Part shown: in pieces, positions 17,892 through 58,753 of the stretch
How positions within the stretch are numbered: position 1 is the first letter of the stretch
Layout: every line of letters starts with the position of its first letter
Assembly (NCBI RefSeq): GCF_028435265.1
Contig: NZ_JAGTJK010000012.1
Location: 166,900 to 230,899, forward strand
Direction: 5' to 3'
Length of the DNA stretch: 64,000 nucleotides
Origin: Polyangium jinanense
Lineage (GTDB): Bacteria > Myxococcota_A > Polyangia > Polyangiales > Polyangiaceae
Notes under the pieces: generated by a model
What the model was told of the DNA's origin: nothing
Databases searched by the model: none
What the model saw: the letters and a program-made list of their open reading frames with translations, nothing else
Position numbers and translations under genes: made by a program

Positions 17892-18003
17892 CGTCTGCCC
17901 TCCGCGTGTCTCGAGGGCGAAAGGAGGCAAGAGACGTGCGATGGCACGCGCAGGCGCGCGCCGAGCACGGATTTCGCAGATTGGGAGGGAGGGGAGGGAG
18001 CCG

Positions 18004-19356: not shown

Positions 19357-19476
19357 GGGGGCGCGGACCATACCACGAAGAAGGCCGAGTGGGAGCAAGT
19401 TGGGGAAGGAGGAGATTCCGTCTCGTCGGATCTTCCCTTATCATCCGCGCGTAGCGTTGCCCGAGGAGAGACGAGC

Positions 19477-22403: not shown

Positions 22404-22407
22404 GGTG

Positions 22408-22836
22408 ATGGCGGTCTACGAGGTCGACGAGTTTTCGTTCGAGGTGCCCGACGGGTACGTCGATCGCAGCATGAACCTGTTCACGCCGCCTGCGGGGCTC
22501 ATGCAGGCGACGCGGCAGAGCCTGCTCGTGACGCGGGAGCCGCGCACGGAGGAGACGGTGTCGCAGCAGGCCTCGCGGCTCGTGAAGGAGCTCGCGGCGA
22601 AGGTGCCGGGGATGAAGGTCCTCGGGCAGCGGGATCGTGCCCTCGGCGCGCTGCCCGGCCGGGAGGCGCGGATCCACGCGGTGCAGGGCACCGTGCCGGT
22701 CTATCAGCGATGTTTTTTCGTGGGCCATTACGGCACGTTGCTCACGGTCATCGCGACGTCGATGCGGTCGCAGAGCGCGCAATGCGATGCGCTCGTCGAG
22801 CGATTCATCTCGAGCTTGCGCCTGAAGAAGCGTTGA
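22408..22836 (+). CDS. DUF1795/DcrB-fold Eag-like T6SS effector chaperone (copy 1)
   Basis: about 143 aa; N-terminal YEVDEFSFEVPDGYVDRSMNLF pattern; sits between vgrG and a TMD-bearing prePAAR protein; the identical-length paralog follows. Confidence 0.5.
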   Translation: MAVYEVDEFSFEVPDGYVDRSMNLFTPPAGLMQATRQSLLVTREPRTEETVSQQASRLVKELAAKVPGMKVLGQRDRALGALPGREARIHAVQGTVPVYQRCFFVGHYGTLLTVIATSMRSQSAQCDALVERFISSLRLKKR

Positions 22837-22851
22837 GGCGGAGGAGGAGCT

Positions 22852-23283
22852 TTGGGCTTTTATCAGACGCAGGAAGCGGGCTTCGAGCTGCCGGCGAACT
22901 GGACCGACGCGAGCATCAACATGCTCGAGTATCCGCGCCCGGAGGGTTTGATCCGGGTGGGTTTGTCGCGGGCCGAGCGCGGGAACCGGGACCTCGCGGC
23001 GAGCCTGGAGGAGGTGATCGTGGAGCAGCGGCGGAAGCTGCCGTTCTTCGAGCTCCTCGGGCGCGTGGATCGCGTCTGCGGGGGTTTGCCCGGGATCGAC
23101 ACGAGGGTCACGTACGAGGAGTCGTCGCGCAAGGTGTATCAGCGGGCGCTCTCGTTTGTGATCGGGGGGCGGTTCTTCGTGCTGGGCGTCAAGGGAACGG
23201 CGACGCAGGAGGCCGAGGTCGACGCGATGTTCGAGCGGGCGGCGTCCACGTTCACGTTACGCGCGCGGCCCTCGGGGGCCTGA
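22852..23283 (+). CDS. DUF1795/DcrB-fold Eag-like T6SS effector chaperone (copy 2, TTG start)
   Basis: TTG at 22852 after GGAGGAGGAG RBS; 143 aa, collinear similarity to copy 1 (YQTQEAGFELPANWTDASINMLEY). Confidence 0.5.
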   Translation: MGFYQTQEAGFELPANWTDASINMLEYPRPEGLIRVGLSRAERGNRDLAASLEEVIVEQRRKLPFFELLGRVDRVCGGLPGIDTRVTYEESSRKVYQRALSFVIGGRFFVLGVKGTATQEAEVDAMFERAASTFTLRARPSGA

Positions 23284-23296
23284 GGAGGGTAGGGCG

Positions 23297-24442
<1,146 letters not shown>

Positions 24443-24444
24443 CC

Positions 24445-26715
24445 CTACCGCCCGCCGCGCCCCGCGGGCTGCGATTGCACCACGCGACCCAGTGCAAGCA
24501 CCCGCAGCGTGATCGGCTCATTGTCCGCCGGATCCTGCTGCGGGTGCGGCTCGGCAATGGCGCGGACGCGGAACTTCGGGAAGAGCGGCAGCTTCTCGGC
24601 GAGCGCCTCCGGCATGTACGTCGGCAAAGGCGATCCGCTGCCCAGAGAGAGTATTCCCCCGATGTGCTCCCCGCCGAAGAGCTTGCGCCTGAGGTAATGC
24701 CGCTCCTCGATCAGAATGCGCTGCGCCGTCGTTTCGAGGTAATCCGACGCGAGCGACCGATTGGCCTGGGCAAACGCCTGCCGCACGCGTGACAGCGCGC
24801 CCTCGAGCAGAGGCACCGCCGCGCTCCGCGGCCCCCGGCAAAGCTCCTCCGCCGCGTCGAGCGCCTCCTTCAGCCGCTTGTCCACCCCCGCGAGCTGCGA
24901 GGCCACGGCGATCGTCGTTTTCAGCGTCTCCAGCGGGTCGCAGGTCATCACGAGCTCGCCATTCACGAGGACGAGCGGCTGTTCGAAGATCCCATCCTCG
25001 TCGATGGCCTCCTCCATCACGCGGGCAATGCCGACCGCGTCGAGCGGAGGCACGCGGCCGAGCGCGCGCCGAATGTCGCGCCGATCGGTCATGGCCTGCG
25101 TCGGTTCCTCCGGTTCCTCGCCCGTGAGCCACTCCGTCGGGCGCTGCGGATCCCGCACGTACGAGGCCCACGCCGATTGCTGACGCACGCGTTGGGGGGC
25201 GCGCTCGTCGAACCAGATCAGATCGACGTATTCCGAGGTCGGCGCGCGGCGCCGCGCAGGTGCGCTCGTCGATATCGCGGGCGCGGCCGGTTCGGGGCGC
25301 GGCGCGGCGACGGCCGCCGCATCGGAGGCCGCCGCGAGGCCGCCGAGCGTCGCCTGGGCATCGTGCACGGGCGGCGCGACGGGCGCGGGCGGCACGGGCG
25401 CCGCGATGGGCACGGGCGCGGGCGGCGCGACGGGCGCGGGCGGGGGCGTATACATCGGCGGCGCAGCCGGGGGCGCGGGGGCCGGCGCGCTCAGCGACGA
25501 GGCCGGCGCACTCAGGAAGGGAAGGCGCCCGCCGGACGCGGGGGGCCGGGCCGCAGGCGCCTCGGGCGCGGGGCTGGGCGTCGACTGGAACGGCAAGACA
25601 CGCCCCGCGGCGGCGGCCTGCGCGAGGCTCGGATCGGCGATCGTCTGGGCCCGCGGCGGCACGGGTTTCGCGGATTTCGCCTCCGCGTCGTCGTTCGGGG
25701 GAATCGATTTTTGCGGGCGCGGCGGCGCCTCGGGCGCGGCCGCGGACTTCGAGGGCGGCGCGTTGTCGAGCCAGATTCGCACCTCGCCCGGTTCGTCGCG
25801 CTGGCGCATGGGGATCTGCGCGCGGAACGTCAGCGTGCAGAGCAGCCGATCGGTATCGATCCACAAGGTATCGGCGCGCATCGGCTGCGCGGCCGCGCCG
25901 CGGCCCTCGATCAGGAACACCGGCTGGAGGCCCGGCAGGTTCGTGACGAGCCGCGGCACGCTCGGGTGTAAGTTTTCGAGGATGATCCGCGCGTTCGGGG
26001 GCAGGAAATCGGTCTGCTGATCCGGCGGCGCCGCATTGAAATAGCGGAAATCGAAGCCGTCGGGGACGTGTGATTCGTACCAGCGCTCGGGCAAGCTGCT
26101 CCGGGCGAGCGCGCCGAGCCGCTCGCGCCGGGAGGGCCACGCGGGCGCGAGCGGGCCGAACCCGACGGGCTCGACGTAATCGGCGGGGGCGCGGACCGTG
26201 ACGCCCGGCCACGTGAGGTTCGGCACGCGCACGCGCCCCATTCCGTCGGCCCATCCCGCGCGCACGCCGACCGGATTCGCCGTGTCCGGACCACCGCCGG
26301 ACCGCTCGTAGACGAGCGGCATGCGCGCGAAGCGTTGCCCCTCGGCGAGGGATCCGTCGGGCTGGAACCAGCGATCCAGGGTGACCTCGATCGACTTGTC
26401 GACCTCGCCGACGATGAGCCGCGCGACGACCGAGCGCGCGGGGACCTGCTGCGGCGCGTGCGCGGAGCCCACGAGGAGCACGTCCGCGCGAGGCTTGAAG
26501 GGCACGAGGTCGCCGGGCGCGCGCAGGCTTCGGTTCGTGTCGTCGTCCCAGTGCTCGTCGGCGGAGGTGATGTCTTCTTGCGCCTCGGCGAGCTGGGACG
26601 TGCCCGGCGCGAGGGAAAACGTCGCCTTGCAGACGAGCGTGAACACCCACCCCTGCGAGCGGTTCGGCCAGACCAAAGGCGCACAGGGGAACGGGATGTT
26701 CGAGACGATTTTCAT
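24445..26715 (-). CDS. extended DUF2169-like protein (T6SS cargo adaptor family), 756 aa, with Pro/Ala-rich linker and extra C-terminal helical domain
   Basis: N-terminus MKIVSNIPFPCAPLVWPNRSQGWVFTLVCKATFSLAPG is the characteristic DUF2169 start as I recall it; T6SS island context; convergent, 2 bp from the PAAR-protein stop. Confidence 0.5.
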   Translation of the reverse strand: MKIVSNIPFPCAPLVWPNRSQGWVFTLVCKATFSLAPGTSQLAEAQEDITSADEHWDDDTNRSLRAPGDLVPFKPRADVLLVGSAHAPQQVPARSVVARLIVGEVDKSIEVTLDRWFQPDGSLAEGQRFARMPLVYERSGGGPDTANPVGVRAGWADGMGRVRVPNLTWPGVTVRAPADYVEPVGFGPLAPAWPSRRERLGALARSSLPERWYESHVPDGFDFRYFNAAPPDQQTDFLPPNARIILENLHPSVPRLVTNLPGLQPVFLIEGRGAAAQPMRADTLWIDTDRLLCTLTFRAQIPMRQRDEPGEVRIWLDNAPPSKSAAAPEAPPRPQKSIPPNDDAEAKSAKPVPPRAQTIADPSLAQAAAAGRVLPFQSTPSPAPEAPAARPPASGGRLPFLSAPASSLSAPAPAPPAAPPMYTPPPAPVAPPAPVPIAAPVPPAPVAPPVHDAQATLGGLAAASDAAAVAAPRPEPAAPAISTSAPARRRAPTSEYVDLIWFDERAPQRVRQQSAWASYVRDPQRPTEWLTGEEPEEPTQAMTDRRDIRRALGRVPPLDAVGIARVMEEAIDEDGIFEQPLVLVNGELVMTCDPLETLKTTIAVASQLAGVDKRLKEALDAAEELCRGPRSAAVPLLEGALSRVRQAFAQANRSLASDYLETTAQRILIEERHYLRRKLFGGEHIGGILSLGSGSPLPTYMPEALAEKLPLFPKFRVRAIAEPHPQQDPADNEPITLRVLALGRVVQSQPAGRGGR

Positions 26716-26819
26716 TGGTCCCCCAAAAGATCTAGGCGGGGTGGGGGGCCCCTGTCAACACCCGCGCTCGGTCGGGGAAGGCGAGCGCGGGCTCTTGGTG
26801 CGGGCGCCTCTTGGTGGTC

Positions 26820-28109
26820 TCAATGGCAGCAGGTATTGCTGGCCCAGGCCACGCCGCCGCCGGACCGGTAGATCACGACGTTGCCGTCGTTCTGTACGGC
26901 GAGATTGGCGTAGTAATTCGACGAGCCGGCCGTGCCCGAGGCCCAGACGGGCTGGCCCGTGGACTTGTAGATCACGAGGTTGCCGTCCTCCTGCATGATG
27001 GCGCGGTCGCCGCCCTTGCCGTTCGTGCCGGAGGCCCAGAGCGGCGAGCCGCCCTGGTAAAGCACGAGGTTGCCGTCGCCCTGGAACTTGAGCTGGAAGC
27101 GGCCGTCACACGACCAGACCGATTGCTCCGCCCCGAGCCCCTGGCCGGAAGAAAGCCAGCCGCAGCCCGACGGCGACGCATACGCGGCGTAACGCGACCA
27201 GATGCCCGCGCGATCGTCGTCCGCGAGCGAGGTGTCGTTGCCGGTGTAATACGCATACATGGTCGCGGCCGAGTCGGTCGAATGGCCGAGGCCGAGGGCG
27301 TGACCGACCTCGTGCAGGGCGACGGTCTCGAGGTAGGCCGAGGACCAGCCCTCCGCGTCGTCGAAATGCACGTCGCCTCCGAGGCCGCCGCCCGGCGAAT
27401 AGGCGTGGGCGAGGACGCCGGACGAGCCGTCGAATGCACTGCTGCAGCCATGGCTGCCCGTGTAGAACCCGAACGAGATGTTCTCGCCCGAGCTCACCTC
27501 GGAGAAGCTCAAGGACGAGGAGGATCGCCACGAGAAGAGCGCGTTCTCGATCGCGGAGCGAACGGAGGCCTGGGCGAAGTCCGAGGTGTAATTCGCGAAC
27601 CGATAGGTCAGCGCCGTGGACGACCAGGTCCCGCCGAAGTGCGTGTAGGGGTCGATGTCGAGGGTCGGCACGACGCTCGGCGGATCGTAATAATCGGGGT
27701 GGCTGCAGCGCGGCATCTGCATGATTCGCTGCGTCGCGGCGTCGACGACGCCGGTCACGGGCAGGCCGTGCTGGGCCTGGTAGAGGCGCACGCCCTCTTC
27801 GAGGGCCTCGTCGAAGAGCTCCGGATCGGCCGGCTCGCGTGAGACGGCGGGCGTCCAGTCGGCGTAATGCTCGGCGAGCTCCTCGTTCTGGTAATACCCA
27901 TAGCGACGCAGATACTCGTACACGCCGCGCACCTCCGCGCCCCGCGCGCCGAGCCCGAGGCCCGCGGCGCTCTCGGCATCCACGGAAGCCTCGTCGCCGA
28001 GCGTCGAGACGTCGTCGCCCGCGCATCCCACGAGGGTCGTCGAGGCGGCCAGGGCGAGAGGCGCGAGAAACAGTGCGAAGCGGGAGTCGAAAAGGTTCGT
28101 CGAGGCCAT
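26820..28109 (-). CDS. secreted M10 matrixin-type zinc metalloprotease with N-terminal peptidoglycan-binding domain and C-terminal bulb-type (B-)lectin repeats
   Basis: ATG at 28109 (MASTNLFDSRFALFLAPLALAASTTLVGCAGDD lipobox; upstream 118 aa of the ORF is Arg/Pro-rich); HEVGHALGLGHS zincin motif; PG_binding_1-like YLRRYGYY; three QxDGNxVxY repeats. Confidence 0.85.
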   Translation of the reverse strand: MASTNLFDSRFALFLAPLALAASTTLVGCAGDDVSTLGDEASVDAESAAGLGLGARGAEVRGVYEYLRRYGYYQNEELAEHYADWTPAVSREPADPELFDEALEEGVRLYQAQHGLPVTGVVDAATQRIMQMPRCSHPDYYDPPSVVPTLDIDPYTHFGGTWSSTALTYRFANYTSDFAQASVRSAIENALFSWRSSSSLSFSEVSSGENISFGFYTGSHGCSSAFDGSSGVLAHAYSPGGGLGGDVHFDDAEGWSSAYLETVALHEVGHALGLGHSTDSAATMYAYYTGNDTSLADDDRAGIWSRYAAYASPSGCGWLSSGQGLGAEQSVWSCDGRFQLKFQGDGNLVLYQGGSPLWASGTNGKGGDRAIMQEDGNLVIYKSTGQPVWASGTAGSSNYYANLAVQNDGNVVIYRSGGGVAWASNTCCH

Positions 28110-28465
28110 GGGATTGATTCTCCGTATGCGAGGGATGAAAGCCCCTATCGCAACGGACATGCCACCTCGGCGGGGCGCGGGGCCCTTGGGGCGATCCTGT
28201 CGAAAGGAATGGTGTTTTCGGGGACGGGACGGGGGGCGCGAGGGCGGGGCGTGTCGAGGGTTGGAGGTGCCAGCCTCCAGGCATGGAGGTGGGAACCGCC
28301 AACGCGCGCCCGGCGGACGGGCATGGCGCCGGGGCGGATACGCTTGCCGGAGGAGCGCTCGGTCCGAGGGGAGATCCGTGCACACGGCACCTCGTGGCTC
28401 GAGGATTGCTGCGCGGGACGCGGAATCGCGAGCCAAGCGCTCGCGCGCAGCCATTGGGGGCAATC

Positions 28466-28900: not shown

Positions 28901-29157
28901 TGGCCTGGAACAAGACAAGCGCGGGTGAGCCAGGGACGAAGGAGCCGCCCCCCGGAGGGGAGCTGCCGTCCATGCCCGGGAAGAGCAATCTTCCCGCGAG
29001 CGACGCTTCGATCCCGCTGCGCCCGAGCAATACCGAGCCTGTCCCACCCCGTCCCGGCGGCGGTCCCGAGCGGGCACGAGAAGGCGAGCACGATCCTACG
29101 TTGCCCGCTGCGCCGGATCCGTCGACGGTGCCGTCGCCGTCACGATCGAGCGGGTGA
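28900..29157 (+). CDS. small Pro-rich protein, doubtful
   Basis: TGATG overlap with the upstream stop suggests coupling; composition is low complexity. Confidence 0.2.
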   Translation: MAWNKTSAGEPGTKEPPPGGELPSMPGKSNLPASDASIPLRPSNTEPVPPRPGGGPERAREGEHDPTLPAAPDPSTVPSPSRSSG

Positions 29158-29399
29158 GAGGCGAGCTCTCGAGGCGCTTTTCGGATCCCCGCCGGACCTT
29201 TCCTCCGTTCCCCTCCAGGTGCGTCGATCGCCGCAAAATCGCGCGTCTGGGCGTCGATAGGGCCAGCTCACGCGGTGTCGCCAACGAGACCGAGGCGCCG
29301 AGGACGCGGCCGAGCCCGAGGTCGCCGCGCCCAACGGCTGAATTCCCCCACCCCCGACACCAGGAGGCTTTTGCCGGAGCAAAAGCCTCCCGGCCTTTG

Positions 29400-30581
29400 T
29401 TACTGGCACTCGCCGAAGTCCATGTAGTCGGGGATGTTGTACGAGAAGCAGGACTTCCCACCGGAGCAGGGGTGTGCGTCGTCGCAATACGCGAGGCAGC
29501 GTTTGTTGTTGTCACCCGCGGAAAACTCGACGCCGCACCGGGCATTCACGCCGCAATCGGCGTCCCACAGGCAGATCTCGCCGACGGGCACGGGGCCGGC
29601 GTGGCCGCACGCGAAGCCGCCGGCGCCGGAGATGTCCACGATTCCGTCGTTCGTGAGGGAGTTGCGGTCGCGACACGTCGAGCCCGCCTCGCAACCATTG
29701 CTGAAGGGTGTACAGGTCGGGATGCAGACACCGGCCAGGGGCGAACCGGTCCAGTAGGCGAGGCACAGCTCGCCCGCGTCGCAATCACTCGCCTTGGCGC
29801 AGTACTCCCGGCAGGCGAAGTTGTTCGGCGCCTTGGCGTCGTCGGTGCAGAGCAGGCCCGGGGCGCAGTTGTCTTCGCCGAAGGCGGTCCGCGTACACGC
29901 AGCGCCCTCCGCGACGGCGCCGCCCACGGCCTCGCACACCGAGAAGTAGGTCTTCTTTTCCCCCGCGGGGTCGACCAGCGTGCATTCGCTGCCGGCGCCG
30001 CAGTTCTGTCCCACGAGGTCGCAGCAGGCGCTCGTGGCGCTGGCCGGGAGGGCCTGCTCGGGGAGCGCCATGGCGCAGGTCGTGCCCGTCGTGGTGACGG
30101 TGCAATTCAGCGCCAGATTGCCGTTCTCGAGCTTGGCGGTGCATTCGTAGGGAGACTTCGTGGAGAGGTGGGAGAGCTCGCCCGAGAAGGTCGCGACATC
30201 CCCGTCCACGGTGCCGGTCATCACGCCCATGTTGGTGGAGACGGTGAGTGTGCAGTCGTTTTGCGCGACGCATGCGCTCTTGAGCAGCCCCCCCATGGGG
30301 CACGGGGCCGGCTCCGTCACGACGTAGGTGCCGTTGAAATTGGCGCAGGCCGGGCCACCGCCGCCCGTACCACCGGAACCACCGGAGCCGCCCGCGCCAC
30401 CGGAACCACCGGAGCCGCCCGCGCCACCGGAACCACCGGAGCCGCCGACGCCGCCGACGCCGCCAGCGCCGCCGGAGCCGCCAGCGCCGCCGCTGCCGCC
30501 GTTGTTGGTCTCCGTGCAGCCAAAGGCCACGAGGGATGTGAGGAGAAGACTGGCGAGAAGAACGCGATTGCGAGATTGCAT
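29400..30581 (-). CDS. Cys-rich secreted lipoprotein with Gly/Ser linker, hypothetical
   Basis: ATG at 30581: MQSRNRVLLASLLLTSLVAFGC lipobox, (GGSGGAGG)n linker, more than 40 Cys. Confidence 0.65.
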   Translation of the reverse strand: MQSRNRVLLASLLLTSLVAFGCTETNNGGSGGAGGSGGAGGVGGVGGSGGSGGAGGSGGSGGAGGSGGSGGTGGGGPACANFNGTYVVTEPAPCPMGGLLKSACVAQNDCTLTVSTNMGVMTGTVDGDVATFSGELSHLSTKSPYECTAKLENGNLALNCTVTTTGTTCAMALPEQALPASATSACCDLVGQNCGAGSECTLVDPAGEKKTYFSVCEAVGGAVAEGAACTRTAFGEDNCAPGLLCTDDAKAPNNFACREYCAKASDCDAGELCLAYWTGSPLAGVCIPTCTPFSNGCEAGSTCRDRNSLTNDGIVDISGAGGFACGHAGPVPVGEICLWDADCGVNARCGVEFSAGDNNKRCLAYCDDAHPCSGGKSCFSYNIPDYMDFGECQ

Positions 30582-30883
30582 GTTGTCGATGAGCTCCGAG
30601 GTTTGCCCCGCCGTCGGCACCTAGGGCCGACCCTGGGGCGTCGTGCGGCGTGCCCTTGGCAAGCTCCGCACCACCGCGGAATCACAGCAACTTTTCGTCG
30701 GGAGCCATCGCGGAAACGTAAGGATCGGGCGGCTCGGCAGGGGAACGGGGGCGTCCCCGGAATCTCCAATGCTTGCGCCAACCTGCGCCGGAGGATGTGC
30801 CGGACGGACAGGCCCGTCGTGGCATGTGTCGAGCCCACCCCAGCCGCCCGCCGAAGCAGGTCATGCCGGCCAGCGTTCCCCGA

Positions 30884-31339
30884 TTAGAACCGACCCAACA
30901 CCACGATTCCCCGCTGCTCCCCGCTCAGGAGGGGTGCAATGGAGACCTGCGGCTGCGTCGGGCTCGAATGCGGCTCGGGATTGATCCACGCGAGCACCAA
31001 TCCAAGAAAGACCCCCGCCGCGCCCACGCCGAGCGCCGTGGTCGCGATCCGCCCGTCGACCGTCGCCTTGTCGCGGAGCGCATATCCCTCCGCGTCGCAC
31101 TTGTCCGGATCCGACGTGAGGCAATGCTGCTTCGTCGCCGCATTCGCCTCGTCCGAGCGCGCCGCATACACCGCGCCCGCCACGATCCCACCGATGCCCG
31201 CACCCACGACGAACGACGCCGCAATGCGGGGACCGGTCCAGAACGGCGTCGGCGGGGGTTCCGGCGGCGCTGCCGGGGGTTCGGCCCAGGCGATCGCGGG
31301 GAGCAGGAGCGTGACCAGGAAAAAGGGCAGGGACCGCAT
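30884..31339 (-). CDS. small secreted/membrane protein made up only of the TM-Cx7C-TM module
   Basis: ATG at 31339, 1 nt downstream of the STAND NTPase stop; signal peptide MRSLPFFLVTLLLPAIAWA; two hydrophobic helices flanking HCLTSDPDKCDAEG; C-terminal GIVVLGRF. Confidence 0.55.
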   Translation of the reverse strand: MRSLPFFLVTLLLPAIAWAEPPAAPPEPPPTPFWTGPRIAASFVVGAGIGGIVAGAVYAARSDEANAATKQHCLTSDPDKCDAEGYALRDKATVDGRIATTALGVGAAGVFLGLVLAWINPEPHSSPTQPQVSIAPLLSGEQRGIVVLGRF

Positions 31340-31340
31340 G

Positions 31341-34300
31341 TCAGAGATCGAAGAGCTCGTCGTCCTGGCCCGCGTCTTCCTCGGCGAGGAGGGCCTCCGC
31401 GTGCTTGGCGACCGATTCGAAGAATTTTTGCTCGGGGGATTTCGGGGGCAATCGAGCAGCGGCTTCCCGGGCCTGCGAGCGGAGGAGCGTTTCGCTGCGC
31501 TCTGCCCGGGCGCCCGAGCGCGGTCGCGCCTGGCCCGTGACGACCGAGAAGAGCGCGCTCCGGACCCGCTCGAAGCAGCCCTCGCCGGTCGTGTGCGCGC
31601 GCCGGAGGAGCGTCGCGACGAGCTCGAGGTGCGCGAAGAGGAAGGTGGGCGGCGCCTCTTCGAGGAGCGCGGAGATCGCTTCGAGCTCGCTCTCGCCGCC
31701 GTCCTGCACCCACTCGGAGAGGACCTCGACCGTCGGTAACGCAAACGAGCGCGAGGCGTCGTGGAAGAGGCGCGCGGCATGGAAGCGGACCCAGCCAATG
31801 CGGGCCCGCGCGAGGTGGCGGACACGGCGCAGGAGCGGGAGCCACTCCGGCGAGCGCGCGAGGCCCGTGAGGATCGCAGACAAGCCCTCGGGCGGGAGCG
31901 GCTCGTACTCCTCGGCGCCCGCGACGATGCCGGACGCGGCGCGCGCGATGCGCTCGATGAAGAGGCCCGTGACGTCCTCGGGCATGCGCTTGCCGGCGTG
32001 GTGGAGGAAGCGCATCGTGGAGTGGCCGTCGAGGCTGCGGGCCGCGCCGAGGCGCGTGAGGAAGAGGATGATCTCCTCCTCGGAGAGCGCGCCTTCGGAG
32101 AAGAGGCCGCCCGCGTCGAGGGCGCCGAAGAGGGCCTCGGCGACCTCGGGGCCCTCGGAGAGGTCCACGCCGACCGCGAGCTCGACCGCGTCGCGTGGAG
32201 AGGACTTGGCCAGCGTGCGGAGCGCGCCGAGCGCCGCGCGTCGGACGAAGCCGTCGCGGTGCCCGAGGAGGTGCCGGAGCGCTTCGCGATCGCCCGGCAG
32301 GGGCTTTTCGACCCAGCGATGGAAGACCTGCGCGAGCGAGGCGCAAAGCGTGGCGTTGCCGCCCCCGACGATGCTGCCGACGAGGGCCTCGGCGCGCTCG
32401 GGCGAGGCTTCGCGGAGCGCGTGGAGCAAGGAGGCGACGTGCGGGCCGAGTGGGCTCTCGGGCGCGCCCATGACGGCCTCGCAAATGGTCACCGCCGCCG
32501 CCGGGTGCTTGCGGGAGAGGACGTGCAGGAGGAGCCGCGGCGAGCCGGATTTGCCCGCGAGCGCGAGGGCTTCGAGCGCCGCGCCGAGCCCCTCGGCCGT
32601 CTGCGCAGGCGCGCGGCCCTCGGCGAGCATCTCGTCGACGACGGCGCGACAGGCGTCCGCCGAGCGGCGCTCCGTGCCACGATCGATCTCGCCCGAGCCC
32701 GGGATCTCGCTCGGCGGCATGTCGATCAAGCCGCGCTGCGCGGGTGAGCGTTGCGTGAGGGCCTCGTAGAGCCTGCGCTCCGTCGAGGTCGGGACGTTGC
32801 CGAGGGCCGTCTCGGCCGCGGCGCGGACGTCCGGAGAGCTCGCACGCCGGGCCGCGCGGCGAAGCGCGTCGGCGACGGCGAAATGGACGAGCGGGTCGCC
32901 GGAGTTCGACGCGGCGGCGCCGAGCATCGCGAGGATCTCGAGCCGCTCCTCGTCGCGCCACCCAGGCTCCATCCGCTCGCCGAGCGAAGAACCACCGGAG
33001 CCGTCGGAGAGGACACGCTCGAGGCCGTTGACCCCCGAGAGAGCCGCGCGTCGTTTCGGCGATTGCGCGCAGCCGGAGAGCGCGGCGAGGGCTTGCTTCC
33101 GCAGGGCGCGGCGGCGCTCGTCGGAGGGGCCGGCGAAGGCGGCGCCCTCGGAGAGGAAGGTGTCGATCACGTCGAGCGGTGAGTGCTTGTGATCGTGCGC
33201 GTCGTCCGCGACGAGCCATCGATCGACGGCGTCGAGCAAGGACTCGTGGACGCCGGCAGGGCGCGCCGACGAGCGCGAGGCGAGCTCGCGGAGGACACGC
33301 ATGGGGTGATCGGGGTGCGGGCTCTGGAGACGGAGATCGTCGCGGCCGAGCTCCCAGAGGAGGTCGGCGGCGCGGGGCAAGTGCGCGAGGTGCAGGCCCA
33401 CGCGGCGCAGGATCGCGGGGAGCTCGTAGAGGACGGACACGGCGGAGAAGAGGGCGCTGGGGCCCCGCGCGGCCTCGGTCTGCGCAGGAGAACGGAGGAC
33501 CGCCGCGGCGAGGTCGAGCATCGCGGCGGGATGATCCGAGGAGAGCTCACGCAGGCCGGCGAGGAGGCGGCATCGATCCGCCGCCGAGGCCGCGTCGATG
33601 CCCGCGCGGACGTGGCGGAAGAGGGCGGTCGTGATCTCGTCGGAAGCGCCGCTCGGGAGGGAGGGGCCGTCGAGCTCGCCGGCGTTGCGGATGAGCGGGA
33701 CGATGGCGTGGGCGCCGAAGCGCTCTTCCAGCGCGCGCACGCGATCGTCGAGCGAGCCCGCGAGGCTGCCCGCGGTCAAGGGGCCGACGAGCGCGCGGTA
33801 GAGCGCGTGATCCGAGAGCGCGCCGGGGACGACACGCGCGCCGTGTGGGCCCCGATCGACGACGCCCGCGGCTTCGAGCGCGCGGAGCGCCGACACGAGA
33901 TCACGACGGCGACACCCGAGCAGATCCCCCGCGCCCTGAAGGAAGCGCTCGTCCGAGGTGCGCACCGGCGCGAGGAGCGCGACGAGCGCGAGCACGCCGG
34001 CGAGGAGTTTTGGATCCCCCGCGGCGGAGGAGCGGAGCAGGAGCAGCTCGTGGCCCCGATCGAGCGCGCATGCCGCGAGCTCGCCCTTGCCGAGCAAGAC
34101 GGGATGAATGGCCTCTTCCCGCACGAGCCGGCCGGCCAGCGCGATCACGAAGGGATGCCCCTCGGCGTGCTTGGCGAGGGCGGCAGCGAACTCGCCGGGC
34201 GCATCGCCGAGCACATGCTGCGCGGCCGCTTCCGCCTCGCTCGGCGAGAGCGCGCCGAGCTCGGGCAGGATGCGCACCAGGTCCGACGAGAGCCCGACCT

Positions 34301-34787
34301 GCGCGAGGAGCGCCGAGAGGCGCGGCAGGCCCGCGGGGCGCGTCGTCAGCACGAAGCGCACGTCGCGGCGATCGATCGCCATGGGCAGGAGCATCGCGGG
34401 CGCGGCTTTGCGGCCCGCGTCGTCGATCACGATCAGGCACGGGCCGGGCGGCAGGCGTGTCGGGGTCGGCGCGCTGGTGATGTCGGTCGCGAAGCGCAGC
34501 ATGGTGCCGACCCGCTGCGCGGCGAGGGCGTCGGCGAGCGCGGAGAGCAGGCTCGTCTTGCCGGAGCCGGAGCGCCCGGGGAGCACGGCGACGCGCGCCG
34601 GGCCGCGTGCGCTTGCGAAGTCGACGAGGGCCGCGAGGATTTCGGCGCGCCCGCCGAAGGGCAGCGCTTCCTGGAAGGGGCGGCCTGCGGCGAGCGCGCC
34701 GCCTTCGAACTCGCTCGGGCCAAAGAGCGCCACACCGTGCTCGATGTGGGCGTCCGGAGGAGTGGGGAAGCCGAGGGTCGTCTCCAT
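31341..34787 (-). CDS. STAND-type P-loop NTPase with a large alpha-helical repeat C-terminal domain (1149 aa)
   Basis: ATG at 34787; FGGRAEILAALVDF, then Walker A LPGRSGSGKTSLLSALA and Walker B PCLIVIDDAG; more than 800 aa of Ala/Leu-rich helical repeats; upstream 76 aa of the ORF is Arg-rich. Confidence 0.75.
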   Translation of the reverse strand: METTLGFPTPPDAHIEHGVALFGPSEFEGGALAAGRPFQEALPFGGRAEILAALVDFASARGPARVAVLPGRSGSGKTSLLSALADALAAQRVGTMLRFATDITSAPTPTRLPPGPCLIVIDDAGRKAAPAMLLPMAIDRRDVRFVLTTRPAGLPRLSALLAQVGLSSDLVRILPELGALSPSEAEAAAQHVLGDAPGEFAAALAKHAEGHPFVIALAGRLVREEAIHPVLLGKGELAACALDRGHELLLLRSSAAGDPKLLAGVLALVALLAPVRTSDERFLQGAGDLLGCRRRDLVSALRALEAAGVVDRGPHGARVVPGALSDHALYRALVGPLTAGSLAGSLDDRVRALEERFGAHAIVPLIRNAGELDGPSLPSGASDEITTALFRHVRAGIDAASAADRCRLLAGLRELSSDHPAAMLDLAAAVLRSPAQTEAARGPSALFSAVSVLYELPAILRRVGLHLAHLPRAADLLWELGRDDLRLQSPHPDHPMRVLRELASRSSARPAGVHESLLDAVDRWLVADDAHDHKHSPLDVIDTFLSEGAAFAGPSDERRRALRKQALAALSGCAQSPKRRAALSGVNGLERVLSDGSGGSSLGERMEPGWRDEERLEILAMLGAAASNSGDPLVHFAVADALRRAARRASSPDVRAAAETALGNVPTSTERRLYEALTQRSPAQRGLIDMPPSEIPGSGEIDRGTERRSADACRAVVDEMLAEGRAPAQTAEGLGAALEALALAGKSGSPRLLLHVLSRKHPAAAVTICEAVMGAPESPLGPHVASLLHALREASPERAEALVGSIVGGGNATLCASLAQVFHRWVEKPLPGDREALRHLLGHRDGFVRRAALGALRTLAKSSPRDAVELAVGVDLSEGPEVAEALFGALDAGGLFSEGALSEEEIILFLTRLGAARSLDGHSTMRFLHHAGKRMPEDVTGLFIERIARAASGIVAGAEEYEPLPPEGLSAILTGLARSPEWLPLLRRVRHLARARIGWVRFHAARLFHDASRSFALPTVEVLSEWVQDGGESELEAISALLEEAPPTFLFAHLELVATLLRRAHTTGEGCFERVRSALFSVVTGQARPRSGARAERSETLLRSQAREAAARLPPKSPEQKFFESVAKHAEALLAEEDAGQDDELFDL

Positions 34788-35040
34788 GGAGTATCGAGCG
34801 CGCCGCGGGGCGAGCGCGCAAAGCCTACCACGGGGGGCGCCTCGCCCGGCGAGGGTTTGGAGGCGATTCAGCTCCCGAGACAAAACTCTCGGGGGGAGAG
34901 GGGGGGCCTCACCCCCGCGACCGTTCCCCGCTGGGCCGTGAGCCGGACAGACAACATCCGCGCTCTTTGTCTTTTGTCTTGCCCGACCCGTTCGTCCTCC
35001 TGATAGATGGGCCACAGCTCATCGCAGGAGGGGTTTCCAG

Positions 35041-40880: not shown

Positions 40881-40894
40881 GCGCCCGAACACCG

Positions 40895-40909: not shown

Positions 40910-40952
40910 TGCCGTGGCGCCGCGGCCTGGCAAAAGGTAAAAGTAAGCTGCC

Positions 40953-42803
40953 ATGAGCAAGCGCCCGCCTTCCCCCACGGATCGCTCCTTCCGCGACGCG
41001 TTCCGGCGTTTTTCCGGTCGCGTGCGGCGGCGGCTCGCGCTCGAACGGATGCTTTCGGGCGCGGCGATCGGCCTCGTGCTCGGCGCAGGCGCGGCCGCGG
41101 CGGCTTGGCAGACGCGGCACGGGGCGTTCCGGCCGTGGATGGCCGCGGGCGGCGCGCTCGGCGCGGCGGCCGGCGCGATCGTGGCCCGCCGGAGGCGCTG
41201 GCGGGATGAAGACGTCGCGCTGTACCTGGACGGGCGCCTCGGCGGCAAGGAGTCGATCTCCACGGCGATCGAGCTCGACCGCGAGGACGAGCGCGACGAT
41301 CCGGCGCGCGCGGTCGTGCTCTCGCAAGCCACGACGGTGCTCGAAAAGGCCAACCCGAAGGATGCGCGCCCGCGGTTCGTTCGGGCGCATCACCTCGCGA
41401 TTCCGCTCGGGCTCGCGGCGATCGGCTACATGTCGCTGCTCCCGCTGCCCGCGCTCCCGCCGCCGCCCGCGCCGCCGCCGGGCGCCGAGCAGGTCAAGCT
41501 CGCGGACATCAAGGGGCTCGACAAGATCATCGACCTCGCGAACGCGAACGCGCGCGACGACGCCCAGAGGAAGCGCCTCGACAAGATCGCCGAGGACGCG
41601 AAGAAGCTGCGCGAAAAACTCCGGGAGGGCATGGAGAAGCGCGAGGCGCAGGCCGAGATCGGAAAGCTCAAGGACGCGATCACGGCCGAGCGGCTCTCGC
41701 TCGGCGACGGCGAGCAGCGTCAGGGCTTGGAGAGCGCGCTCGGCAAGCTCGCGGAGAACCCCGACCTCAAGGACGCGGCGAAGGCGCTCGGCGATCGTGA
41801 TCTCGTCTCGTTCGACGACGCGATGGAGAACCTCGCGAACAAGCTCGAAAAAGAGGACCGCGATCGCGCGAAGAAGACACTCGAAGAGGCCGCCGAGGCC
41901 GCGCGCAAGCAAAACGCGCCGGACGTGGCGAAGGCGCTCGAGGAGCAGAAGAAGCGCCTCGAAGAGATGGCCAAGAAGAACGAGAAGCTGAAGGAGCTCG
42001 GCAAGGCCCTCGGCGAGGGGTTGTCCGAGGACGCGAAGGAAGCGCTGAAGGATCTCGACAGCGGCAAGGCCGGCGGCAAGGAGCAGCAGAAGCTCGCGGA
42101 GAAGCTCGAAGAGGCGCTGGGCAAGCTCACGCCCGAGGAGCGCAAGCGGCTCGCCGAGAACATGAAGAAGCGCGCCGCCGAGATGAACGGCGAAGAGGCG
42201 CCGGGCGAGGGGCCGAGCAAGGAGCAACTGCAAGAGCTCGCCGAGGAGCTCGAATCCGAGGAGGGCCAGAAGCGGCTCGCCGAGGAGCTCAAGAAGATGG
42301 CCGAGCCCGAGCCCGAGGGCAGCGAAGAGGGCGAGCGGCAGAAGCGGCTGGAGGACGCGCAGAAGGGCCTGGGCGAGGCCGAGGGGCAACTCGGCGCGCC
42401 GATGCCGGTGCCCGTGCCGGGGCAAGGGCCGGGGAACAAGCCCGGGAACAAGGCCGGCGAGAAGCCCGGCGGGAACAACGGGAGCCCCGGATCCGGCGGC
42501 AAGGACGAGGGGCAGCCGTTCGCCGGTCACAGCGAGGGCGGCGGGCCGGGCGATCACAAGGGCCAGACCGGCGTGGTCGACGGTCCCGGCATGAAGGCCC
42601 GCGCAACCGGCCCGATCAACAAGGGCAAGCCCATGCCGGGGCTCGTCATGGGACGGACTTCGGGGCGAGCGGGTGAATCGGCGAACATCCAGGGGACGGG
42701 CGCGCTCGGGCAGGCCGCGGCAGGGGAGCTCGGGGCGATCGAGCGGAGCGACGTGCCCGAGGAGTACCGCGAGCAGGTCGGGCGCTATTTCCAGCCCAAG
42801 TAA
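40953..42803 (+). CDS. membrane-anchored K/E-rich coiled-coil protein, hypothetical; first gene of the MoxR/ABC operon
   Basis: two N-terminal hydrophobic segments; about 300 aa of charged coiled-coil (KLREKLREGMEKREAQAEIGKLK...); Gly/Pro-rich tail. Confidence 0.65.
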   Translation: MSKRPPSPTDRSFRDAFRRFSGRVRRRLALERMLSGAAIGLVLGAGAAAAAWQTRHGAFRPWMAAGGALGAAAGAIVARRRRWRDEDVALYLDGRLGGKESISTAIELDREDERDDPARAVVLSQATTVLEKANPKDARPRFVRAHHLAIPLGLAAIGYMSLLPLPALPPPPAPPPGAEQVKLADIKGLDKIIDLANANARDDAQRKRLDKIAEDAKKLREKLREGMEKREAQAEIGKLKDAITAERLSLGDGEQRQGLESALGKLAENPDLKDAAKALGDRDLVSFDDAMENLANKLEKEDRDRAKKTLEEAAEAARKQNAPDVAKALEEQKKRLEEMAKKNEKLKELGKALGEGLSEDAKEALKDLDSGKAGGKEQQKLAEKLEEALGKLTPEERKRLAENMKKRAAEMNGEEAPGEGPSKEQLQELAEELESEEGQKRLAEELKKMAEPEPEGSEEGERQKRLEDAQKGLGEAEGQLGAPMPVPVPGQGPGNKPGNKAGEKPGGNNGSPGSGGKDEGQPFAGHSEGGGPGDHKGQTGVVDGPGMKARATGPINKGKPMPGLVMGRTSGRAGESANIQGTGALGQAAAGELGAIERSDVPEEYREQVGRYFQPK

Positions 42804-42833
42804 CGGCAGAGCGCGAGTACGCTGCGCGCTGGC

Positions 42834-43859
42834 ATGACGACGACGGGCGACTTTCAAAAAAGGCTCGAGCGGGCCCGCGAGGCGAGCGCGCGCCTCAAGG
42901 ACGCGATCGGGCAGGTGATCGTGGGCCAGGGCGAGGTCGTGGAGCAGGCGCTCTGGGGCCTCGTGGCCGGCGGGCACGTGCTGCTCGAAGGCGCGCCCGG
43001 GCTCGGCAAGACGCTGCTCGTGCGCACGATCGCGAGCTGTCTCGACCTGAAGTTCTCGCGCATCCAGTTCACGCCCGACCTCATGCCGAGCGACGTGACG
43101 GGCACGAACATCCTCGTGACGTCGGCCGACGGATCGAGGCACTTCGCCCTGCACAAGGGGCCGATCTTCGGCCAGGTCGTGCTCGCGGACGAGATCAACC
43201 GCGCGACGCCGAAGACGCAGAGCTCGCTGCTCGAAGCGATGCAGGAGCACGCGTGCACGATCGGCGGCGTGCGGCACGCGATGGAAGAGCCGTTCTTCGT
43301 GCTCGCCACGGAGAACCCGATCGAGATGGAAGGGACGTACCCGCTGCCGGAAGCGCAGCTCGATCGATTTCTGCTCAAGGTGATCGTGCCGAGCCCGACC
43401 GAGGACGAGATGACCGAGATCCTCGCGCGCACGACGGGACAACCGAAGGACGCGCCGCCGCGCGTGCTCGATCGCGACGAGGTGCTCGCGATCCGCTCAG
43501 CATGCCGCGACGTCGCCGTGGCCGAGCCGATCATGCGCTTCGCCTCGCGCCTCGTCCGCGCGAGTGATCCGACGACACAAGGCGCGCCCGATCTCGTGCG
43601 GCGCGCGATCCGCTACGGCGCGGGCGTGCGCGGCGCGCAGTCGCTCGTGCTCGCGGCCAAGGCCGTGAGCGTGCTCGAAGGCCGCGCGCACGTCTCGTTC
43701 GGCGACGTGCAGCGCGTCGCCAAGCCCGTCCTGCGCCACCGCCTGATCCGATCCTTCGAGGGCGAGGCCGACGGGATCACGACCGATCAGGTGGTCGACG
43801 CGCTCGTCGAGAGCGTGCCCGCCCGGCCGGAGAACGTGGAGCAGGCGATCCGTCGATGA
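42834..43859 (+). CDS. MoxR-family AAA+ ATPase
   Basis: Walker A GAPGLGKTLLVRTIA; Walker B/sensor VLADEINRATPKTQSSLLEAMQE; typical MoxR length. Confidence 0.9.
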   Translation: MTTTGDFQKRLERAREASARLKDAIGQVIVGQGEVVEQALWGLVAGGHVLLEGAPGLGKTLLVRTIASCLDLKFSRIQFTPDLMPSDVTGTNILVTSADGSRHFALHKGPIFGQVVLADEINRATPKTQSSLLEAMQEHACTIGGVRHAMEEPFFVLATENPIEMEGTYPLPEAQLDRFLLKVIVPSPTEDEMTEILARTTGQPKDAPPRVLDRDEVLAIRSACRDVAVAEPIMRFASRLVRASDPTTQGAPDLVRRAIRYGAGVRGAQSLVLAAKAVSVLEGRAHVSFGDVQRVAKPVLRHRLIRSFEGEADGITTDQVVDALVESVPARPENVEQAIRR

Positions 43860-58058: not shown

Positions 58059-58649
58059 TCACCCCCGCCGATACATCACATCCGTCCGGAGCACGTATTT
58101 CGTCCCCTCGATCACCGGCGCTCCTCGGTGGTACAGCGAGTGCGAGAACACGAGCGCCATTCCGCGCCGCGGCTCCACGCGGATCTCGTCGTCGGTCACG
58201 TACATGAAATCGGTCGTCCCGCCGACGCAGTCTTCATTGAGGTAAAATATCAACGTCAAGAGGCTCTGCTCCTCCGGCGTGCGGAGGAACGCGCCGTCCC
58301 GGTGCCAGTCGAATTGCTGGCCCGGCGTGTAGCGGTAATACCGGAATCGCTCGTTGAGCCCCACGGGGCGATACGCGCCGAGCTCTGCCGGCACGTGCGC
58401 CGCGACCCGCGGCCAGAGCTCGGCCGCGAGGGCCGGGTCGTCCTGCATCACGCGCCGGTTGTTGCGGACGTCCTTCGCCATCACGAACTTGTTCGGGCCC
58501 ACCGTGATCGGCGCGTCCGTGAAGCCGTGGGCCTCGGCGCGCCGGATGAGGTCGTCGCACTCGGCGGGGGCGAGGACGTTCGAGAGCGTGAAGAGCTCCT
58601 TGCCGGTCGCGAGCCGGCGTTTCTCGATGGCGTTCATGCCGGACACCAT
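58059..58649 (-). CDS. 2OG-Fe(II) oxygenase (prolyl-4-hydroxylase-like)
   Basis: HxD...H facial triad (WHRDGAF, FSHSLYHRG) with RxS-like 2OG contact. Confidence 0.8.
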   Translation of the reverse strand: MVSGMNAIEKRRLATGKELFTLSNVLAPAECDDLIRRAEAHGFTDAPITVGPNKFVMAKDVRNNRRVMQDDPALAAELWPRVAAHVPAELGAYRPVGLNERFRYYRYTPGQQFDWHRDGAFLRTPEEQSLLTLIFYLNEDCVGGTTDFMYVTDDEIRVEPRRGMALVFSHSLYHRGAPVIEGTKYVLRTDVMYRRG

Positions 58650-58753
58650 GCGGCCGCGCCGGGCGGCTGAACAGGGCAGAACCGGGCAGGAACCGGGCGG
58701 GGCCGGCGGTGGACAGGACGGCCCGCCGGAAGGATGATGCGCAGGCGAATCGA

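Follow-up and report, generated by a model that had tools for sequence, protein, structure and literature searches.

Bacterial NLR-like receptors are normally built as one polypeptide that joins effector and sensor. Among the closest described systems are the Avs proteins, such as Avs4 (Mrr-like nuclease-STAND-TPR) and Avs5 (SIR2-STAND). Plant ZAR1/NRC-type resistosomes and bacterial STANDs with N-terminally fused transmembrane (TM) elements rely on a shared concept, namely that NOD oligomerisation drives a membrane-inserting element, and the known STAND architectures include some with TM effector domains (PMC13581612; bNACHT preprint). The STAND NTPase of Polyangium jinanense described here has the same NOD fold as the Avs proteins, with EfAvs5, Avs4 and Avs3 among its structural matches, and a large, helical-repeat C-terminal region. 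It differs from them in having no effector domain, in being chromosomal and syntenic rather than patchy, and in having a separately encoded small membrane partner. At the sequence level, it matches PADLOC Avs models and solved Avs chains only at the P-loop, and its signature is nSTAND5-like, whereas Avs5 belongs to nSTAND3. ZAR1 and NRC proteins are also structural neighbours of its NOD, but the membrane element here is a separate signal-peptide protein that would be constitutively inserted in our proposal, rather than an N-terminal helix released upon activation. The LuxR/HTH DNA-binding output domain of MalT-type regulatory STANDs is missing, and the sensor is HEAT-like and common to nuclease-bearing relatives. 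We conclude that the NTPase belongs to a large Avs/NLR-like family, for which Pfam nSTAND_NTPase5 is the closest family described so far, and within it to a Polyangiaceae branch that is inherited vertically and has no effector domain.

Both genes lie on the minus strand of the window, the whole stretch of 64,000 nucleotides that was analysed. The initial annotation had placed the two open reading frames at the correct coordinates, but gave their lengths as 1149 and 152 residues instead of 1148 and 151. Their features are as follows:

34788..34855, minus: conserved 5' region of the NTPase gene, 68 nt (blastn vs L004, L006, L003, L018)
31341..34787, minus: STAND NTPase gene, P. jinanense KEG38_23220, 1148 aa plus stop (ORF and translation)
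34653..34787, minus: N-terminal 45 aa before the GR helix, standing where relatives have the effector domain
33783..34652, minus: NOD module, residues 46-335 (GR motif, P-loop NBD, helical domain with GHP motif, winged helix)
34554..34577, minus: Walker A GRSGSGKT, residues 71-78 (sequence; G71, G76 and K77 invariant)
34419..34436, minus: Walker B LIVIDD, residues 118-123 (sequence; D122 and D123 invariant or nearly so)
31344..33782, minus: C-terminal all-helical HEAT/ARM-like solenoid, residues 336-1148, the presumed sensor, with a conserved acidic tail DDELFDL at its end
31337..31343, minus: stop-start junction TGAcATG, 1-nt spacer (sequence)
30884..31339, minus: small membrane protein gene, WP_272421961.1, 151 aa plus stop (ATG 31339, stop 30884-30886)
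31283..31339, minus: predicted signal peptide, residues 1-19, ending in AIAWA ahead of EP (hydropathy and conserved AWA/ALA-E site, alignment A2)
31160..31225, minus: hydrophobic glycine-rich segment 1, residues 39-60, with GxxxG motifs (Kyte-Doolittle up to 2.07 over 19 aa)
31049..31159, minus: inter-helix loop, residues 61-97 (invariant columns of alignment A2)
30983..31048, minus: hydrophobic glycine-rich segment 2, residues 98-119 (Kyte-Doolittle up to 2.07)
30887..30982, minus: C-terminal tail, residues 120-151, NPE.H ... G.VV.G.F with an invariant final Phe (alignment A2)

GC3 frame plots indicate coding on the minus strand for both genes, with a third-position GC of 0.85-0.97 in the NTPase frame and 0.81-0.85 in that of the small ORF, and the NCBI annotation of WP_272421961.1 is identical in extent. 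The NTPase, a 100% match to P0001, runs from an ATG at 34787 to a stop at 31341-31343. The same start methionine is found in all 18 homologues; 18/18 are free of frameshifts and stops and have invariant catalytic motifs.

The GR, Walker A and Walker B motifs named in the initial annotation were all found and are invariant or nearly so in distant relatives, as scored over 36 sequences of 24-65% identity. In the GR helix, G46 is fully and R47 almost fully invariant; the Walker A and B motifs span GRSGSGKTS (residues 71-79) and LIVIDDAG (residues 118-125), respectively. The sensor-1 arginine after strand 4 (R150, TTRP) is invariant, as is P212 in the GxP motif of the helical domain (GHP, residues 210-212). 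In the structural model, the helical domain is present together with a β-hairpin winged helix at residues 294-334. A structure comparison, a check that the initial annotation had called for, returned NLRP3, NOD2, EfAvs5, Apaf-1, MalT and Avs4 as top matches, and the NOD fold is nearer to known STAND/NLR structures than to classical AAA+. The 1148-residue protein is thus a genuine STAND NTPase and not a member of a housekeeping AAA family. Its solenoid is all helix by DSSP of the model, resembles karyopherins, CAND1 and SAMD9 in Foldseek, has a weak HEAT Pfam match and is kept at full length in distant relatives (profile search). The best Pfam match is nSTAND_NTPase5 (PF25199; 27.9 bits, E 2.4e-6), which falls short of the 34-bit gathering cut-off. 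PF25199 is also the best family over the NBD in all distant relatives tested (24.0-33.3 bits), so that every protein scanned lies at 24-33 bits, below the cut-off; the model covers about 145 NBD residues and is silent on function.

The claim that the NTPase has no N-terminal effector domain was borne out: just 45 residues lie ahead of the GR helix, with no domain detected among them. Residues 1-16 are disordered in the model and 18-31 form a strand and a helix; residues 1-20 occur solely in the Polyangiaceae clade, the profile matches of distant relatives beginning at position about 20-22. The wider family is large, comprising 1857 representative proteins at E<=1e-3 and 782 at E<=1e-30 in the profile search. 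Its top members match profile positions of about 21-1150 behind 160-350 extra N-terminal residues, and roughly 95% of full-length relatives have an effector domain of the Mrr, DUF4062, caspase, SIR2, Cap4, PNP or kinase type. An Mrr_cat cluster accounts for 71/126 N-terminal extensions (two members confirmed by Pfam) and a DUF4062 cluster for 20/126 (one member confirmed); Peptidase_C14, SIR2_2, Cap4_nuclease, PNP_UDP_1 and Pkinase occur as well, and one extension also matches LmuA in PADLOC. The usual family layout is an N-terminal death effector, mostly an Mrr-type nuclease, followed by the NOD and a roughly 800-residue HEAT-like sensor. Because effectors such as Mrr, SIR2, caspase, Cap4 and kinase domains are swapped on a constant NOD and sensor, the Avs/NLR-like framing in the initial annotation is justified for the family, and because full-length relatives bear N-terminal effectors, the Polyangium branch is an effector-less derivative. 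Near homologues of both the NTPase and the small protein are confined to Polyangiaceae. The suggested check against defence-system databases came out negative, as neither protein matches a PADLOC model beyond the P-loop: in PADLOC-DB 2023, a version predating the Avs7-24 models, the NTPase gave only P-loop-length matches at E>=0.003 and the small protein gave none. The distant relatives tested match PADLOC solely via their N-terminal effector domains.

The small protein has Kyte-Doolittle hydrophobic segments at residues 1-24, 39-60 and 98-119, in agreement with the signal peptide and two hydrophobic helices reported earlier; we infer that the signal peptide is cleaved between AWA and E. Both helices are Gly/Ala-rich with GxxxG motifs, reminiscent of glycine-zipper membrane proteins (Pfam Gly-zipper, microcin V-like). 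However, the protein has no significant match to Gly-zipper models in Pfam or NCBIfam (Gly-zipper_Omp, YMGG and Rick_17kDa_Anti absent at E<=1), its only Pfam matches at E<=1 being LapA_dom (0.018) and MccV (0.88, residues 46-73). The 37-residue loop is its most conserved region, with R61, S62, D63, H72, C73, L74, S76, D77, C81, E84, G85, Y86 and R89 invariant (protein numbering; alignment A2 is +1, owing to a leading extra residue). It is predicted to be cytoplasmic because of the signal peptide and the six K/R residues that it contains. The conserved C-x7-C loop and the C-terminal tail define a distinct module that belongs to no Pfam or NCBIfam family. This module recurs as the C-terminal end of an unrelated 346-residue secreted protein within the window, which points to a generic envelope anchor more than to a dedicated toxin, though a membrane anchor and a toxin would both fit. 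A degenerate fragment copy of the small gene is present in L003.

The small gene starts 1 nt after the NTPase gene, as the initial annotation had it, and the junction, TGAcATG, is a candidate for translational coupling. The small gene lies directly 3' of the NTPase gene in the window, in L003-L006, L016, L017, L018 and L019 and probably in L009, and these related loci have the junctions TGAcATG, TGAaATG, TGAtATG or overlapping ATGA. The database holds 13 small-protein homologues, all from Polyangiaceae; all those of known context (13/13) are encoded right behind the NTPase with a conserved stop-start, down to 46% identity. Small-gene carriers occur in both major subclades of an NJ tree, so the small gene is ancestral to the clade. 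The co-conservation of the pair, which the initial annotation had proposed to test, runs in one direction: wherever its context is known, the small gene accompanies the NTPase, but the NTPase also occurs without it. At least seven loci in two lineages encode a full-length NTPase with intact motifs and no small gene; a SnoaL-like gene follows in its place in the P. aurulentum lineage, a malic-enzyme gene follows in most of clade B, and an HMM of the small family detected nothing else in loci without it. The small gene was thus lost at least twice, while the NTPase remained intact and constrained, and its dispensability in two lineages marks the small protein as an accessory rather than an obligatory effector. 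The dN/dS ratio is 0.18-0.44 in the NTPase gene and 0.28-0.66 in the small one, compared to roughly 0.10-0.17 (one pair 0.30) in nearby genes of a housekeeping-like type. Purifying selection acts on both genes, and the small gene is genuine.

Sensor identity and gene pairing both hold, and the membrane-effector and defence roles attached to them by the initial annotation are putative, so that its interpretation is supported in part. We favour a reading, to which we assign a probability of about 0.45, in which the NTPase is an effector-less STAND sensor and the small protein, where present, is its membrane-side partner in trans. The solenoid would bind a protein ligand, upon which the NOD would oligomerise in an ATP-dependent manner, as in other STANDs. 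Output would pass through partners in trans because the NTPase has no effector in cis. Where present, the small protein would be inserted with its N and C termini outside and the conserved 37-residue loop facing the cytoplasm, and the oligomerised NTPase would either cluster its glycine-zipper helices via the loop or be tethered by them, with membrane perturbation or membrane localisation as the outcome. Several points count against this: the lineages that keep the NTPase without the small gene, the negative PADLOC search, the fixed synteny and the recurrence of the small module in a secreted protein. In addition, constitutive export to the membrane would be unusual for the effector of a cytoplasmic STAND, and deletion of Avs effector domains is reported to abolish cell death (PMC13581612). 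A bolder version, a 'split resistosome', is rather unlikely in our estimation. Here, an immune-type STAND would have shed its cis nuclease and would use a stand-alone glycine-zipper membrane module to signal in trans, NOD oligomers clustering the cytoplasmic loops of the 151-residue protein and thereby nucleating a membrane lesion; the pore subunit would be exported separately, and the system as a whole would have become fixed and be passed on vertically in a bacterial family that is social and multicellular.

Either way, the locus offers a natural case of a whole clade that has lost the effector and in which the sensor has long been kept under purifying selection; part of this clade couples the sensor to a very small envelope protein. 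Should the small protein be the output, the pair would show how STAND signalling can divide between a sensor and a trans membrane effector, and would define a new small membrane-active module. Otherwise, the locus would clearly illustrate the exaptation of an immune-type STAND for a role outside defence, which would match the 'functional switches' inferred from STAND phylogeny. Under either reading, the two genes form a compact and clearly bounded unit that lends itself to direct testing.

The genomic surroundings bear on the exaptation alternative. The gene upstream of the NTPase is divergent, and a p619/MoxR operon, encoding a 2-TM coiled-coil protein, a MoxR AAA+ protein, a protein of ~700 residues, an ABC ATPase and an ABC-2 permease, lies divergently next to the NTPase wherever a locus includes upstream sequence (window, L001-L006, L009-L011, L013-L019). 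This MoxR/ABC-transporter operon is the only universally conserved neighbour of the NTPase. Upstream blastn homology ends at 34855 (L004, L006, L003) or 34835 (L018), and the conserved 68 nt are the sole remnant of a divergent intergenic region that ancestrally measured 125 nt; a search for a sigma-70-like promoter upstream of the NTPase gave none. The NTPase could be a domesticated STAND that lost its nuclease and became a chromosomal regulatory or scaffolding switch, perhaps tied to the adjacent envelope-type operon, with the small protein as tether or as input/regulator. We rate it highest among the rival readings, though still as somewhat improbable. The universal adjacency of the operon argues for it, as do the full-length conservation and single-copy, vertical inheritance of the NTPase along the species tree; this inheritance and the fixed synteny are unlike typical mobile defence genes. 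The lack of an effector domain and of defence-database matches, the recurrence of the small module as C-terminal anchor of a secreted protein and the presence of MalT-type STANDs among the structural neighbours are also consistent with domestication, and defence and non-defence clades are interspersed in STAND phylogeny, implying functional switches (PMC13581612). However, unrelated DNA has entered the gap between NTPase and operon at least three times, which makes tight co-regulation unlikely: the insert measures 6 kb in both the window and L005, carries a gene for penicillin amidase in L016 and consists of two small ORFs in L019. Moreover, the NTPase dN/dS is about twice that of the operon genes, the NTPase has no DNA-binding or other output domain, and adjacency inside one bacterial family may reflect simple inheritance.

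Alternatively, the small protein could provide the signal input, its conserved loop informing the cytoplasmic STAND of conditions in the periplasm or the membrane. Its signal peptide and two hydrophobic helices, its exclusive pairing with the NTPase and the fact that the periplasmic tail (NPE.H..., terminal G.F) is conserved as well as the loop would suit such a 2-TM envelope protein. We nevertheless regard this as very doubtful: the NTPase has its own roughly 800-residue sensor solenoid, common to relatives without such a partner, two lineages do without the small gene, and the output problem of the NTPase would stay unsolved. That the adjacency lacks any functional link, the small gene hitch-hiking or the NTPase being a decaying relic, is highly improbable, because the repeated loss of the small gene, its fragment copy in L003 and its relatively high dN/dS (up to 0.66) are set against a stop-start junction that persists as NTPase identity falls from 96% to about 50% and dS reaches about 2, a small family never found elsewhere, purifying selection on both genes and the intactness of all 18 NTPase homologues.

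The initial annotation's statement that nothing else is on the operon cannot be shown to hold: 264 nt past the small gene, with no terminator predicted in between, another ORF of 406 aa begins on the same strand (30620..29400), and only some of the closest relatives have it. The variable flank of the NTPase holds the 6-kb insertion, a T6SS VgrG island and, in L001, CdiI/NACHT-WD40 genes, and no known defence system was identified beside the Polyangium NTPase. Further afield, plasmid-borne relatives in Rhizobium and Xanthobacter adjoin HNH, HEPN-associated, helicase/AAA, integrase and recombinase genes, and one NTPase relative lies on an IMG/VR contig.

The window has a GC content of 70%, and a frame plot of third-position GC (GC3) marks two consecutive minus-strand genes. 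The initial annotation had described this pair correctly: both ORFs and the GR, Walker A and Walker B motifs were found, and the protein lengths needed trivial correction. Both products are identical to annotated P. jinanense hypothetical proteins (KEG38_23220 and WP_272421961.1).

The gene pair
34787 to 31341, minus strand: NTPase ORF, 1148 aa (GC3, translation)
31339 to 30884, minus strand: small-protein ORF, 151 aa, starting 1 base past the NTPase stop (TGAcATG)

A longer NTPase frame starting at GTG 35015 was rejected, since the GC3 signal fades upstream of 34787 and all homologues have the same Met start. Also rejected was a plus-strand ORF convergent on the small gene (29154..30887, 577 aa), whose GC3 phase is wrong; the coding ORF is on the minus strand (30620..29400). 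A 406-aa minus-strand ORF begins 264 nt downstream of the small gene, occurs in some of the closest relatives only and matched nothing in Pfam, PADLOC or NCBIfam scans. No terminator was seen between the two, in a scan that, like that for promoters, is uninformative in DNA of 70% GC. The operon may hold more than this pair.

The NTPase belongs to the STAND class and does not group with housekeeping AAA families, as both its conserved motifs and its structural matches indicate. The GR motif (G46, R47) is followed by Walker A (GRSGSGKTS, residues 71-79) and Walker B (LIVIDDAG, residues 118-125). Across 18 close homologues, and also in an alignment that takes in relatives at 24-31% identity, the STAND-diagnostic positions are invariant or nearly so: GR helix, Walker A lysine, Walker B DD pair, Arg150 in TTRP (sensor 1) and GHP motif. 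Only 45 residues lie ahead of the GR helix, so the protein lacks an N-terminal domain. The best Pfam match is to nSTAND_NTPase5, below threshold (27.9 bits against a cut-off of 34), followed by sub-threshold matches to AAA_16, nSTAND1 and NACHT and a weak HEAT match in the C-terminal half. NCBIfam and PADLOC scans gave P-loop noise only, a PDB sequence search yielded no informative relative, and we found no description of nSTAND5 in the literature. Because Foldseek searches with the full-length protein were swamped by generic HEAT solenoids, the NOD (residues 46-335) was modelled separately. The AlphaFold2 model of residues 1-450 (pLDDT 85) contains an NBD, a helical domain and a winged helix; its top PDB matches are EfAvs5, Apaf-1, a wheat NLR resistosome, MalT, CED-4 and NLRP3, with Avs4 and SAMD9 ranking lower. 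Residues 336-1148 form an all-helical solenoid that Foldseek places with karyopherins and CAND1.

Word-indexed searches returned only 18 NTPase homologues, all from Polyangiaceae, full length and 51-100% identical. Searching 1.84 billion representative proteins with a profile gave 1857 matches at E<=1e-3 and 782 at E<=1e-30. The best 150 cover essentially the entire profile (positions about 21-1150), and almost every one is longer at the N-terminus, by 160-350 residues.

N-terminal extensions of the NTPase relatives
71 of 126 extensions, one cluster: Mrr_cat restriction endonuclease (2 members confirmed by Pfam)
20 of 126 extensions, one cluster: DUF4062 (1 member confirmed by Pfam)
Other domains: caspase (Peptidase_C14), SIR2_2, Cap4 nuclease, PNP_UDP_1 phosphorylase, protein kinase

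One Cap4 nuclease extension also matched LmuA (PADLOC), and a few relatives have an N-terminal TM helix or glycine-rich segment. The extension is absent from about 5 of 131 relatives, as it is from the Polyangium proteins; C-terminal fusions of a TM module to STAND were found in none of the top 150. Immune receptors of the Avs/NLR-like kind are recognised by just this arrangement, a fixed NOD and sensor with swappable effectors at the N-terminus (see also PMC13581612). The family is missing from PADLOC 2023, and no numbered Avs type was assigned to it: solved Avs chains match the NTPase at the P-loop only, and Avs5 is nSTAND3, a Pfam signature unlike the nSTAND_NTPase5 match of the NTPase.

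Genomic contexts of distant relatives were read for the homologous protein P0182, two plasmids and one viral contig. Annotated relatives are found in mobile or defence-like settings: one lies on a Rhizobium etli plasmid next to HNH, HEPN-associated and AAA-plus-helicase genes, another on a Xanthobacter plasmid next to integrase, recombinase and GIY-YIG genes, and one on an IMG/VR contig. The two nearest relatives of the Polyangium clade (P0032 and P0037) both carry Mrr, so that the simplest reading of the clade is as a branch whose nuclease was lost. The NTPase is thus a STAND of an immune-type family, to all appearance catalytically competent, that has shed its cis effector.

All 13 homologues of the small protein in the databases are from Polyangiaceae. 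The co-conservation expected of a sensor-effector pair holds in one direction only: wherever the context is readable, the small gene sits immediately after the NTPase, but the NTPase has been kept without it. Carriers include P. fumosum, Polyangium sp. y55x31, sp. 15x6 and sp. 6x1, P. mundeleinium, P. sorediatum, two metagenomic contigs and one deep-branching MAG. In every case the two genes meet at TGAnATG or at an overlapping ATGA, and this still holds at 46% small-protein identity and a synonymous divergence of about 2. The small gene is absent from the P. aurulentum lineage, where a SnoaL-like gene follows the NTPase, and from most of the second subclade, where a malic-enzyme gene does; the NTPase is intact in both. 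Relocation was rejected within roughly 20 kb per locus, where a six-frame search with an HMM of the small family found nothing. In a neighbour-joining tree, carriers fall in both major subclades, with one locus (L017) basal in the second, so the small gene is ancestral and was lost at least twice. We conclude that it encodes a real envelope protein, exclusively linked and translationally coupled to the NTPase and dispensable in two lineages: the small protein depends on the NTPase, and the NTPase does not depend on the small protein. As a side observation, the P. fumosum locus contains a degenerate fragment of the second helix region (15192..16034 of L003; 39-46 aa, about 82% identity) 1.5 kb downstream of the intact small gene, which suggests a past local duplication.

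Hydropathy analysis of the small protein reveals an N-terminal signal-peptide-like segment (...AIAWA-EP) and two Gly/Ala-rich hydrophobic stretches (residues 39-60 and 98-119). In the family alignment, the 37 residues between these helices are the most conserved part (Arg61, Ser62, Asp63, His72, Cys73, Leu74, Ser76, Asp77, Cys81, Glu84, Gly85, Tyr86 and Arg89), and helix 2 is followed by an NPE.H motif and an invariant C-terminal G.F. The inter-helix stretch has six Lys/Arg residues; with the signal peptide cleaved, this predicts a cytoplasmic loop, which would probably be the only part within reach of the cytoplasmic NTPase. The family profile also matches, at E 1e-9, the C-terminus of an otherwise unrelated protein in the window.

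Second occurrence of the module
306..1349, minus strand: 346-aa secreted protein with the small-protein module at its C-terminus (profile match)

Its end has the same layout (Gly-rich helix, C-x7-C loop with the same spacing, Gly-rich helix, and a short tail with a terminal aromatic residue). Hence the 151-aa protein is this myxobacterial C-terminal membrane module standing alone. The module matched no Pfam or NCBIfam model and may represent an undescribed envelope-anchor domain. An anchor or oligomerising membrane element accounts for the 151-aa protein no less well than a dedicated toxin would.

On the other side of the NTPase lies a conserved operon of divergent orientation, present in all loci for which there is upstream sequence.

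The conserved operon
40947..48899, plus strand: entire operon, adjoining the NTPase in all Polyangiaceae loci
40947..42803, plus strand: 2-TM coiled-coil protein, ending ...PEEYREQVGRYFQPK
42804..43859, plus strand: MoxR AAA+ protein
Further genes, plus strand: ~700-aa protein, ABC ATPase, ABC-2 permease

Pfam, PADLOC and NCBIfam scans returned nothing for p619, the operon gene divergent from the NTPase, or for the ~700-aa gene. The ancestral NTPase/p619 intergenic region measures 125 nt and has been split by insertions three times.

Insertions between NTPase and operon
Window ~34856-40900: 6.0-kb lower-GC (0.63-0.65) island of four plus-strand genes (481 aa with signal peptide, 725 aa, 383 aa, 300 aa), P. 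jinanense and Polyangium sp. 15x6
L016: penicillin amidase gene
L019: two small ORFs

The 6.0-kb island is missing in four other close relatives, and its genes have no match in Pfam, PADLOC or NCBIfam; P. jinanense encodes paralogues of the 481-aa protein at other sites in its genome.

Purifying selection acts on the small gene (dN/dS 0.28-0.66). Values for the NTPase (0.18-0.44) are about twice those of the operon genes (0.10-0.17, one pair 0.30). They are lowest in the winged helix and the last 250 residues (0.05-0.13) and peak, against close relatives, at 0.7-1.05 in residues 336-440 (window 33468..33782), the first helices past the winged helix, which could reflect relaxed or diversifying selection at the NOD-sensor hinge.

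Bacterial STAND proteins of the NLR-like kind are already known, and the family is recognisable by effector swapping. What is new is a vertically fixed branch that lacks the effector across the clade and has a two-helix partner, exported and encoded by its own gene; no Pfam or NCBIfam model matched the module from which this partner is built. Our tentative reading, with a probability of about 0.45, is that the solenoid would sense a ligand, the NOD would then oligomerise, and output would be delivered in trans through the predicted cytoplasmic loop of the small protein, by membrane perturbation or membrane tethering. Avs proteins without effector domains are reported not to kill (PMC13581612); a trans effector is therefore necessary if the NTPase is still a defence receptor, and in lineages without a partner exaptation is likely. 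Less probable than our reading is that the NTPase is a domesticated switch outside defence, which may be tied to the MoxR/ABC envelope operon. That the small protein serves as input instead of output is improbable, the sensor being demonstrably retained independently of its partner. Absence of any functional link is a similarly poor prospect, for all that the NTPase persists alone, given the exclusive linkage and coupled junction. The sensor-to-membrane reading concerns a compact pair that is open to direct testing.

The downstream flank of the NTPase varies between loci; the NTPase is a vertically inherited resident bordering a variable region. It is not a mobile defence gene of the usual sort, nor does it clearly belong to the neighbouring operon. 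In the window this flank contains a T6SS VgrG/DUF2169/DcrB island along with a gene for a secreted metalloprotease.

T6SS-type accessory island, window 17866..28463
17866..21450, plus strand: VgrG
22390..23283, plus strand: two tandem DcrB-like 148-aa genes
24445..26715, minus strand: DUF2169 protein
26820..28463, minus strand: secreted M10 metalloprotease with PG-binding and lectin domains

In P. aurulentum the flank carries CdiI, HTH and nuclease-NACHT-WD40 genes. Here (L001 / L013, 13489..19455) a SnoaL_2 gene stands in place of the small gene, and after it come genes for a CdiI_5 immunity-like protein, an HTH protein and a 1366-aa NA-iREase3-NACHT-pentapeptide-WD40 protein; these indicate that the downstream flank accumulates conflict-system genes. 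The window also encodes a second STAND-type protein (58592..61342, plus strand, 916 aa), in which an N-terminal HTH_3 precedes AAA_16/NACHT; the architecture is that of a regulator and has no connection with the NTPase pair.
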